DNA of 64,000 bases from Escherichia coli (GCF_017348835.2 NZ_CP071375.1); one strand, 5' to 3'; counted from the stretch's first letter, positions 54,896-57,666 are shown. The notes: a model not told the origin generated them from the sequence alone. Numbers and translations: made by a program.

Positions 54896-56872
54896 TTATT
54901 CATCTTCAAGATAGGTATAACCGTACAAACCTGCCTCGAACTCTTCAAGGAACTGTTGTTGCAGTTCAGCATCAAGATCGGTTTTCTTCACTTGATCACG
55001 GAACTGAGTTAACAGCGTTTTCGGATCGAGCTGTACATATTGCAGCATGTCCGCCACGGTATCGCCTTCGTCAGACAGTTCCACTTCTACACTACCGTCA
55101 GGGAAGACGAACACGTCAACCGCTTCGGTATCACCGAACAGGTTGTGCATGTTGCCGAGGATCTCCTGATATGCGCCGACCATAAAGAAACCGAGCATCG
55201 GCGGATTCTCTGGATCGTACTCCGGCATAGGCATTGTCGTGGCAATACCATCACCATCGATATAGTGGTCGATAGCACCGTCGGAGTCACAGGTAATATC
55301 CAGCAGCACAGCGCGGCGTTCCGGCACTTGATCTAACCCTTCCAGCGGCAGAACCGGGAACAACTGGTCGATCCCCCACGCATCCGGCATCGACTGGAAC
55401 AGCGAGAAGTTGACGTACATTTTGTCCGCCATACGTTCCTGCAGCTCGTCGATAATCGGACGATGAGCACGGTTTTGCGGATCCAGCTGCTTTTGCACTT
55501 CATGGCACATGCTCAAATAAAGCTGCTCAGCCCATGCGCGTTCTTGCAGGCTAAAGATGCCGGAAGAGTAGCCGATATGAATGTCGTGCAGATCCATCTG
55601 ACTGTCGTGTAACCATTCACGCAGAGAACGGCGAGTTCCCGGTTCGTGCATCTCCTGCCAGGTTTCCCACATGCTTTGCAGCGCGCGCGGCGCATCTTCT
55701 GCAGGCGCGGTCGGCACCGTGTATTCGTTACGTTCCACGCCGATGATATTAGACACCAGCACGGTGTGATGCGCAGTCACTGCACGACCCGATTCAGTGA
55801 TTACCGTCGGATGCGGCAGACCGTTTTCTTCACACGCATCACCAATCGCCCAGATGATGTTGTTGGCATATTCATTGAGGCCGTAGTTCACCGAACAGTC
55901 GGACTGCGAACGAGTACCTTCATAATCCACGCCCAGACCGCCGCCGACGTCGAAGCACTGAATATTGACGCCCAGCTTGTGCAGTTCCACATAGAAACGC
56001 GCCGATTCACGAACGCCCGTGGCGATATCGCGAATATTCGCCATCTGCGAACCGAGGTGGAAGTGCAGTAGTTGCAGGCTGTCGAGACGCCCGGCTTCAC
56101 GCAGGGTTTCAACCAGTTGCAGTACCTGAGTCGCAGCCAGGCCGAACTTCGATTTTTCCCCGCCGGAGGACTGCCATTTACCCGAGCCCTGCGAAGCCAG
56201 ACGTGCACGCACGCCCAGACGAGGAACGACATTCAGACGTTCTGCTTCATCCAGCACAATGGCGATTTCTGACATCTTTTCAATGACCAGATAGACCTTG
56301 TGGCCCATCTTCTCGCCAATTAATGCCAGGCGGATATATTCGCGGTCTTTATAACCGTTGCAGACGATGACGCTACGGGTCATGCCAGCATGTGCCAGCA
56401 CTGCCATCAACTCGGCTTTGGAACCGGCTTCCAGACCCAGCGGTTCGCCCGAATGAATCAGGGACTCAATCACGCGACGGTGCTGGTTAACTTTGATCGG
56501 ATAAACAAGGAAGTAATCGCCGTTATAGCCGTAGGATTCCCGCGCACGTTTGAACGCGGCGTTAATGGAACGCAAACGGTGCTGCAGGATCTGTGGGAAA
56601 CAGAACAGTGCAGGCAGACGCTGACCCTGTGCTTCACGAGTTTTCACTAACTGCGCGAGATCGACGCGAGCTTCCGGGACGTCCGGGTCCGGGCACACGC
56701 TGATGTGGCCCAGCTCGTTAACGTCATAGTAGTTATTGCCCCACCAGGCAATATTGTAAGTACGCAGCATCTTGCTGGCTTCCTGGGAGCTCATTGCAAC
56801 CTCCTGCATGGAGCGTAGTACACCGTGTTCGCCCGCTGACGAAGGCAAACCCATAGACATGTCGTCAGACAT
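54896..56872 (-). CDS. speA: biosynthetic arginine decarboxylase
   Basis: 658 aa from ATG 56872 ([45 protein letters not shown]...). Confidence 0.95.
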
Positions 56873-56907
56873 AGCGAACCTCAAATTATTTTATTAAGTG
56901 TAAAACA

Positions 56908-57012
56908 GTTAACGACTATCGCAGCCTGGAACTGCGATAACAACCCATAAGCACATGGATTTTCCAGCAGTGAATGCTGACGCTCCAACTGCGCAACCGG
57001 TTTCTTTTTCAT
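56908..57012 (-). CDS. yqgB: small ORF at the yqgB position (34 codons as read here)
   Basis: ATG 57012 then MKKKPVAQLERQHSLLENPCAYGLVIAVPGCDSR*; below ORF-track cutoff; length differs from the 43 aa I recall for YqgB. Confidence 0.35.
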
Positions 57013-57147
57013 AACATTATTAAGCACATAACCGAACGTAAGTGTGACAGTTCGGCGAAACCACGAGAAAACTCTTGTTTTTACAAGAGCGCCCTTGTTC
57101 AGTCCTCAGTAACTGTAACCAGCTCTTGAATCCTGAGAAGCGCCGAG

Positions 57148-57363
57148 ATGGGTATAACATCGGCAGGTATGCAAAGCAGAGATGCAGAGTGCGGGGAACG
57201 AATCTTCACCAGAACGGTGAGACAGGTTAAGCAGCAGACAACGGTTCATTATTTCGTATCACCTCCACGGCCGCCTGTTAAGACGAACCCACAAGCCAAA
57301 ACTCTGATTTCAACCCGGCTGGAAGTGGCAACACGAAAGAAACGTCGTGTGCTTTTTATTTAA
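57148..57363 (+). CDS. yqgC: small ORF at the yqgC position (71 aa, doubtful gene)
   Basis: 71 aa ORF in the metK upstream region; K-12 annotates a 71-aa yqgC here as far as I recall. Confidence 0.3.
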
Positions 57364-57626
57364 GCCGCGCGCCGCGTTTTATACCCCACAATGGCAGAAA
57401 ATTGCAAAAGATAAATACGCAGAATGCCGGCATTGTCAGGAAAAATTTCCAGCCACGTTTTTAACAGAATGAGACACGATTCAAAAAAAAGTGGAAATCG
57501 GGTTAAGAATTGACCTAAAATAGCCATCCAGATGTTAATCCATCCATACCGATTAACACTCAGACTGCCAGTGTTTTTAACCTGCAGAGTCGTGGTAGGA
57601 TCCGCTACCACAGAAAATCCACACAA
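57360..57626 (-). CDS. yqgD: small ORF at the yqgD position (doubtful gene)
   Basis: 88 aa ORF antisense to the metK leader. Confidence 0.25.
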
Positions 57627-57666
57627 CAGTTTGAGCTAACCAAATTCTCTTTAGGTGATATTAAAT

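Follow-up and report, generated by a model that had tools for sequence, protein, structure and literature searches.

Small open reading frames and the speA leader in the divergent speA–metK region of Escherichia coli

The divergent speA–metK region

The DNA analysed here (the window) is a stretch of 64 000 nucleotides from E. coli (GCF_017348835.2, NZ_CP071375.1). The interval of interest separates the ATG of speA (56872, minus strand) from that of metK (57667, plus strand) and is an ordinary conserved divergent control region between these two E. coli genes (Table 1). In the ORF listing, the mechanical speA ORF reaches further, to TTG 56884. Pairwise alignment of window positions 56850–57680 with K-12 MG1655 (NC_000913.3) gives 828 identical bases out of 831 and zero gaps. 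One of the three substitutions is located between yqgB and yqgG (57048), and the other two (57499 and 57504) are both nonsynonymous changes in yqgD (F36L and L38R). The sequences of yqgB, yqgG and yqgC are identical to their K-12 counterparts. A search with the same 831 bases finds them in 5425 out of 5426 complete E. coli genomes, with at least 99% identity in 5411, and the region is therefore part of the core chromosome.

The identities of the small genes at this spacer are already known and annotated. NC_000913.3 lists yqgB (b2939, minus strand, 43 amino acids), yqgG (b4784, minus strand, 47 amino acids), yqgC (b2940, plus strand, 71 amino acids) and yqgD (b2941, minus strand, 83 amino acids), with the same positions, strands and lengths as in the window. 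The NCBI PGAP annotation (RefSeq) of other E. coli genomes names yqgB, yqgG and yqgD, and yqgC is absent. As many as 36 ORFs of at least 20 amino acids overlap 56500–58100, so that ORF size alone is not above chance.

The −35 and −10 hexamers of the speA promoter are conserved across genera. The transcription start site (TSS) of speA at about 57370 is the 5′ end of a cloning primer in the supplement of Adams et al. (PMC7815308) rather than primary TSS data: the forward primer for the entire speA 5′ UTR carries the gene-specific sequence GCGCGGCTTAAATAAAAAGC, which begins at minus-strand position 57370 (K-12 3086409). Counting from this position gives a speA leader of about 498 nt (57370..56873) that contains yqgG and yqgB, both of which lie downstream of the primer-derived TSS on the same strand as speA. 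All of the yqgD ORF is located upstream of the speA TSS, where it covers the promoters of both divergent genes. Under it, just downstream of the metK promoter-like site picked up by the promoter scan, is the block with the highest conservation in the spacer (57509–57575, plus strand, 0.87–0.93 identity), which is probably the metK operator. The best match to a tandem metbox (57522–57537) agrees at 10 of 16 positions and its repeats are weak. MetJ boxes have been reported for metK in 119 of 122 Enterobacterales (PMC3228920).

Table 1. Genes, ORFs, promoters and RNA elements in and around the speA–metK spacer, numbered from the first letter of the window.
Feature	Coordinates	Strand	Remarks
speA	54896..56872	−	Biosynthetic arginine decarboxylase; 658 codons from ATG 56872; K-12 b2938
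Long-range pairing	57138-57121 with 56880-56862	−	Predicted; yqgG 3′ block with speA ribosome-binding site and first codons; invariant on both sides
yqgB	56881..57012	−	43 codons + TGA (56883-56881); ATG 57012; identical to K-12 b2939
P7 hairpin	56945-56907	−	Inside yqgB; invariant stem UUAUCGC/GCGAUAG
P6 hairpin	56992-56951	−	Inside yqgB; compensatory changes
P5	56999..57062	−	Hairpin 57055-57032 with compensatory changes, enclosed by invariant pairing around the yqgB start codon
P5 enclosing pairing	57062-57057 with 57004-56999	−	Predicted; GGUUUC with GAAACC; invariant on both sides; brackets the yqgB start
P4 terminator-like hairpin	57098-57063	−	Inner stem 57089-57072, then UUUUCUCGUGG; between yqgG stop and yqgB start
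yqgG	57106..57249	−	47 codons + TGA; K-12 b4784; antisense to yqgC
P3 hairpin	57220-57206	−	Inside yqgG codons 10-15; 4/5 pairs with compensatory changes
5′ domain of speA leader	57256..57352	−	P1, anti-SD, P2, yqgG SD and published RNA 3′ end
P2 hairpin	57286-57271	−	Compensatory changes; enclosed by the anti-SD:SD helix
Anti-SD helix	57327-57320 with 57267-57260	−	Predicted; CACUUCCA with yqgG SD UGGAGGUG; invariant on both sides
P1 hairpin	57352-57328	−	Compensatory changes; 5′ domain of speA leader
yqgC	57148..57363	+	71-amino-acid ORF antisense to the speA leader and yqgG
speA promoter and leader start	57370..57407	−	−35 TTGCAA 57407-57402; −10 TATAAA 57383-57378; TSS ~57370
yqgD	57360..57626	−	83 amino acids from GTG 57611 (K-12); 88 amino acids from TTG 57626 (mechanical, five codons longer)
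Likely metK promoter	57492..57521	+	−35 TGGAAA 57492-57497, 18 nt, −10 TAAAAT 57516-57521; promoter scan
metK	57667..58821	+	Methionine adenosyltransferase; ATG at 57667

Conservation of the four reading frames

Using the SpeA N-terminus, 80 loci from different Enterobacteriaceae species were fetched, and the speA–metK spacer could be extracted in 76 of them. These spacers are 633–1039 bp long (median 803) and their identity to the window varies between 51 and 93% in 30 nt bins. The yqgB frame has an aligned ATG in all 76 and is always open for at least 42 codons (exactly 43 in 51 of them). For yqgG the ATG aligns in 75 of the 76 spacers; the frame covers 43–64 codons in all 75 and is within 10% of 47 codons in 72. 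The start of yqgC is equally well preserved (ATG in 74 spacers and GTG in one more), and this ATG is part of a block whose invariance has other causes. Taking at least 80% of 71 codons as near full length, the yqgC frame reaches this in 11 of the 75 species whose aligned start codon is valid; its median length is 25 codons. A valid start of yqgD is present in 19 of the 76 spacers and a full-length frame in three. Six mechanical control ORFs taken from the same spacer decay in a manner that resembles yqgC and yqgD.

Diversity by codon position reveals no third-position excess at the family scale for any of the four ORFs. That this holds even for the open yqgB and yqgG frames is because an RNA-level constraint appears to overlie these ORFs. 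The measure is thus uninformative here, and we therefore relied on ORF integrity, on pN/pS against the other five frames and on the changes within the genus. Calculated against the window sequence, with each ORF compared with its other five frames, pN/pS is 0.62 for yqgB (near the lowest among its six frames) and 0.56 for yqgG (the lowest among its six), compared with 0.83 for yqgC and 0.93 for yqgD; speA, the positive control for coding constraint, gives 0.03–0.07. Changes within Escherichia display a third-position bias in yqgB and yqgG and are mostly nonsynonymous in yqgC and yqgD. yqgB and yqgG are the only two of the four annotated K-12 ORFs that look genuinely translated.

Similarity searches do not discriminate in this region. 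A tblastn search finds 'homologues' of all four ORFs across the Enterobacteriaceae, and an out-of-frame translation of metK used as the query scores similarly, with 60–75% identity and E-values down to 1e-44. Identity in tblastn or Pfam was therefore rejected as coding evidence for yqgC and yqgD. For annotation this is a reason for caution, as similarity matches in strongly conserved noncoding DNA are uninformative on coding status. YqgB and YqgG score above the curated cut-offs of their profiles, with 113.3 bits for YqgB against Pfam PF11036 (cut-off 24, profile positions 1–43 of 43), 90.1 bits for YqgB against NCBIfam NF033844 small_YqgB (cut-off 35, full length) and 129.9 bits for YqgG against Pfam PF23505 (cut-off 27).

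The real small ORF opposite yqgC is yqgG, which was overlooked in the preliminary description of this DNA and is positioned as in K-12, between yqgB and the speA TSS. It is preceded by a perfect 9 nt Shine–Dalgarno (SD) sequence, GGAGGUGAU, at 57266–57258 that is invariant in all 64 leaders used for the structure prediction below. Chromosomally SPA-tagged YqgG was detected by Weaver et al. (10.1101/511675). The start codon of yqgB has been detected by INRI-seq, and Adams et al. (PMC7815308) count it among the experimentally validated small ORFs. A mini-ORF of two codons (ATG TTA TGA, 57018–57010, minus strand) overlaps the yqgB start codon; it reads ATG ATA TGA in most other genera and its ATG is not invariant across genera. 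An in-frame GTG (57027) is located five codons upstream of the yqgB start.

The speA leader and a putative cis role of its upstream ORFs

Covariation among 64 Enterobacteriaceae leaders shows the ∼498 nt speA leader to be a structured RNA in which compensatory changes support five or more hairpins. RNAalifold predicts 90 pairs in 16 helices from these sequences. Cells that are changed on both sides of a pair number 224, against 74 ± 10 in shuffles (none of 500 reaches 224) and 37–63 in slid controls, and the covariation score is 0.166 against 0.108 and 0.044–0.059, respectively. The fold of the full E. coli leader has a z-score of −2.5. In the leader pairs 816 G–U cells are observed versus 40 A–C cells, and the structures thus belong to the speA-sense RNA. 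Hairpins in a yqgC-sense RNA were also considered and are contradicted by this same asymmetry. The covariance models of Rfam 15 produce no match at E ≤ 1 on either strand of 56700–57800.

Several of the elements in Table 1 coincide with the conserved peptide motifs of YqgB and YqgG. The conserved loop of P3, CGUUCU, encodes the 'RS' motif of YqgG, and the stem of P7 encodes the conserved YqgB motif GLLS...AIVV. The anti-SD:SD helix predicted upstream of yqgG is also present in the single-sequence MFE and centroid structures of the E. coli leader. The supplement of Adams et al. (PMC7815308) places a Term-seq RNA 3′ end at K-12 3086295, corresponding to 57256 in the window, four bases past this helix, and such an end would fit a stable 5′ fragment that is trimmed back to the helix. 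The predicted long-range pairings are invariant on both sides, so that covariation neither supports nor opposes them. In P4 a compensatory U–A to C–G change is present in 18 of the 64 sequences. The terminator scan picks up this hairpin as a stem-loop followed by UUUU, but it contains only three G–C pairs and its U tract can pair upstream. The supplement passages of Adams et al. (PMC7815308) list no Term-seq 3′ end at P4; given this and the weak stem, we did not adopt P4 as a working intrinsic terminator.

The stop codon of yqgB overlaps the SD sequence of speA (GAGG, 56882–56879) and lies 11 nt before the speA ATG. A TGA at one of two positions is found in all 77 sequences: 58 have it 11 nt before the speA ATG (TGAGG, in the speA SD) and 19 have it 5 nt after this ATG (ATGTCTGA). 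This rule of two possible TGA stops (56883–56865, minus strand) holds despite insertions of 21–144 nt in the 3′ end of yqgB, ERIC-type elements included. Such a fixed stop argues for selection on ribosomes that reach the speA start and suggests translational coupling of yqgB to speA. Within speA itself, the INRI-seq paper describes a second, internal start in the same frame, 26 codons further downstream, which leads to a cytoplasmic isoform. The first 30 codons of speA (56872..56792, minus strand) display less third-position bias than codons 30–100, with diversities at codon positions 1/2/3 of 0.044/0.058/0.162 and 0.041/0.006/0.332, respectively.

ERIC/IRU-type palindromes of about 120–125 nt are found at three places in the leaders of Citrobacter, Enterobacter and Intestinirhabdus. 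Those in the 3′ end of yqgB (loci L030, L056 and L079) leave its frame open through the element, at 87–91 codons. Those inside yqgG (L012 and L017) follow the equivalent of window position 57152 and replace the C-terminal peptide, and a third group (L012, L013, L018, L050 and L060) follows the equivalent of 57357.

The conserved C-terminal peptide of YqgG is lost in two Citrobacter species through an ERIC insertion and in one Kluyvera species through a 1 nt deletion. The nucleotide block at the 3′ end of yqgG is kept in all three, which points to a constraint on this block at the level of the RNA rather than the peptide.

We consider a cis role for the translation of yqgG and yqgB in the control of speA to be most likely. 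The two would be upstream ORFs (uORFs) coupled to speA expression, and their translation would remodel the speA leader, limit Rho-dependent termination and deliver ribosomes to the speA start, so that speA expression would depend on it. The ribosome-binding site of yqgG is predicted to be masked by the upstream anti-SD. In agreement with such a role, Adams et al. (PMC7815308) report Rho-dependent 3′ ends and termination in the speA leader and list yqgB–speA as a potential uORF pair.

A more elaborate version of this model, which we put forward tentatively and which is somewhat more likely to be wrong than right, is that the whole ∼498 nt leader constitutes an undescribed, family-wide cis-regulatory RNA. 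Here, the anti-SD would gate translation of yqgG, ribosomes crossing the invariant yqgG 3′ block would unfold the long-range pairing by which the start region of speA is masked, and yqgB would pass ribosomes on to speA by termination–reinitiation. Together these steps might set Rho-dependent termination and the output of arginine decarboxylase, perhaps with polyamines, arginine or pH as the signal. What counts about YqgB and YqgG would then be chiefly the act of translating them, and the conserved motifs of both would be shadows of RNA structure.

The main alternative is that the YqgB and YqgG peptides work chiefly as free proteins, with YqgB for instance serving as a factor in acid stress, and not through translation of the leader. 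Both peptides contain conserved motifs, YqgG accumulates as a tagged protein (10.1101/511675), NCBIfam calls YqgB an acid stress response protein (a name that, according to the Salmonella study PMC13159126, originates from Hobbs et al. 2010), a yqgB deletion is sensitive to acid and colistin, and overexpression of YqgB induces heat-shock proteins. These same motifs, however, coincide with RNA hairpins and invariant blocks, in frames without a third-position excess at the family scale, and the C-terminal motif of YqgG is dispensed with in the three species mentioned above while the nucleotide block stays. The fixed position of the yqgB stop relative to the speA start also speaks against action as free proteins. 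In Salmonella, deletion of yqgB lowers speA mRNA, speB mRNA and arginine decarboxylase, and the phenotype is relieved by putrescine or spermidine (PMC13159126). This deletion can be read as a protein effect or as the mere removal of leader RNA; the drop in speA and speB mRNA and its reversal by polyamines are as expected of an effect in cis. On balance we regard a free-protein function as the main activity as unlikely, although it is the strongest of the competing explanations.

The preferred reading, in which uORF translation controls speA in cis, would bring this leader close to several known systems. The mdtU–mdtJI pair, in which a spermidine-responsive uORF controls Rho termination (Adams et al. 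2021, PMC7815308), likewise combines a small leader ORF ahead of a gene related to polyamines with Rho-dependent leader 3′ ends, and the authors of that study also name yqgB–speA as a candidate of the same type. The speA leader differs in having two candidate uORFs instead of one and in being much longer (∼498 nt) and structured. In speFL/orf34–speF, as described in the speF leader paper (PMC6386406), an ornithine- or arginine-responsive leader peptide acts through Rho-dependent attenuation; the likeness consists of a leader ORF before a polyamine decarboxylase gene, alternative RNA structures and the involvement of Rho. There the peptide sequence matters, whereas the conserved blocks in the speA leader look RNA-constrained. 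The placement of the yqgB TGA, in the speA SD or just past the speA ATG in 77 of 77 sequences, resembles that in translationally coupled pairs, in which the stop overlaps the downstream ribosome-binding site, and coupling of yqgB to speA is putative; speA differs from such pairs in also having the internal alternative start described in the INRI-seq paper.

A search for a described speA leader mechanism returned only the speF leader paper (PMC6386406) and Adams et al. (PMC7815308), and a structured speA leader with two uORFs goes somewhat beyond this literature. The proposal provides a concrete model for the control of speA, the gene at which putrescine synthesis from arginine begins. If true, the cis model would also explain the acid and colistin phenotypes of the 'yqgB' deletion. 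Taken as a whole, the explanation that combines an intact yqgB, translation of only yqgB and yqgG, a structured leader with uORFs that most likely act in cis, and yqgC and yqgD as relics is one that we hold with high confidence.

yqgC, yqgD and the length of yqgB

The preliminary description had located a 71-amino-acid ORF (plus strand, 57148..57363) and an 88-amino-acid ORF (minus strand, 57626..57360), and both sit at these positions. It had also suspected that they may not be genes, and this view is borne out by the decay of their frames across genera, their near-neutral pN/pS and the negative expression data for yqgC. Its remark that both overlap the metK leader applies to the 88-amino-acid yqgD, which lies on the opposite strand over the metK promoter and 5′ region, and not to yqgC, which is antisense to the speA leader.

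Both yqgC and yqgD are most likely not genes. They would instead be annotation relics whose frames remain open in Escherichia alone, because divergence within this genus has so far been too small to break them. YqgC scores 133.9 bits against Pfam PF17430 (YqgC-like, cut-off 25), a value that is uninformative because of the identities obtained with out-of-frame metK. The PF17430 family models an ORF that is kept only in Escherichia and has negative expression data, and it probably represents conserved noncoding DNA translated in one frame. For YqgD, named DUF2684 in NC_000913.3, the versions of Pfam and NCBIfam that were searched contain no match at E ≤ 1. Both ORFs linger in reference annotation, and PGAP still names yqgD, though the frames decay given enough divergence.

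Could yqgC, yqgD or both nevertheless be real, young coding genes that are restricted to Escherichia? In favour of this, the window, K-12, E. albertii and E. whittamii all have both frames open, yqgD is named by PGAP for every E. coli genome listed, and a Pfam family exists for YqgC. Against it, the DNA is conserved throughout the family but these frames are not, pN/pS is 0.83 and 0.93, changes within the genus are mostly nonsynonymous, and yqgD contains an internal stop in Escherichia sp. E1V33. Weaver et al. observed no ribosome density on yqgC, with or without initiation inhibitors, and did not detect the SPA-tagged protein (10.1101/511675). yqgD has no Pfam or NCBIfam family and is placed over two promoters and the probable metK operator, and family matches carry no weight where out-of-frame metK yields similar tblastn identities. 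yqgC and yqgD (57148–57611) have also been listed in the literature as carrying a 'potential SOS box', which would favour their being genes, but a LexA box (CTGT-N8-ACAG, at most one mismatch) is absent from the entire speA–metK spacer. We consider young genes improbable here, clearly more so than free-protein functions for YqgB and YqgG.

The ORF at the yqgB position had been read as 34 codons, in an interval given from coordinate 56908, against 43 amino acids for K-12 YqgB, and an indel had been raised as a possible cause. The K-12 length is correct, as b2939 is annotated at 43 amino acids. The nucleotide alignment with K-12 that had been suggested as the check, with identity across yqgB named as the outcome that would speak against a difference, finds yqgB identical throughout, without gap or substitution. 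Beginning with ATG 57012, 43 sense codons precede the TGA at 56883–56881. The 35th codon (56910–56908) is AAC (Asn), and translation of 57012..56908 gives 35 sense codons ending in ...AIVVN and no stop. A TAA does occur at 56911–56909, inside GTTAAC, one base out of the yqgB frame, and it is this triplet that accounts for both the count of 34 codons and the coordinate 56908. That a real indel or premature stop cuts YqgB to 34 residues in the present strain, for which the earlier count and the mere presence of that TAA would speak, is virtually inconceivable given that the TAA is out of frame and that the 43 open codons match K-12 without a gap. The apparent 34-codon yqgB is an artefact of a one-base frame slip, and there is no strain-specific change in yqgB.
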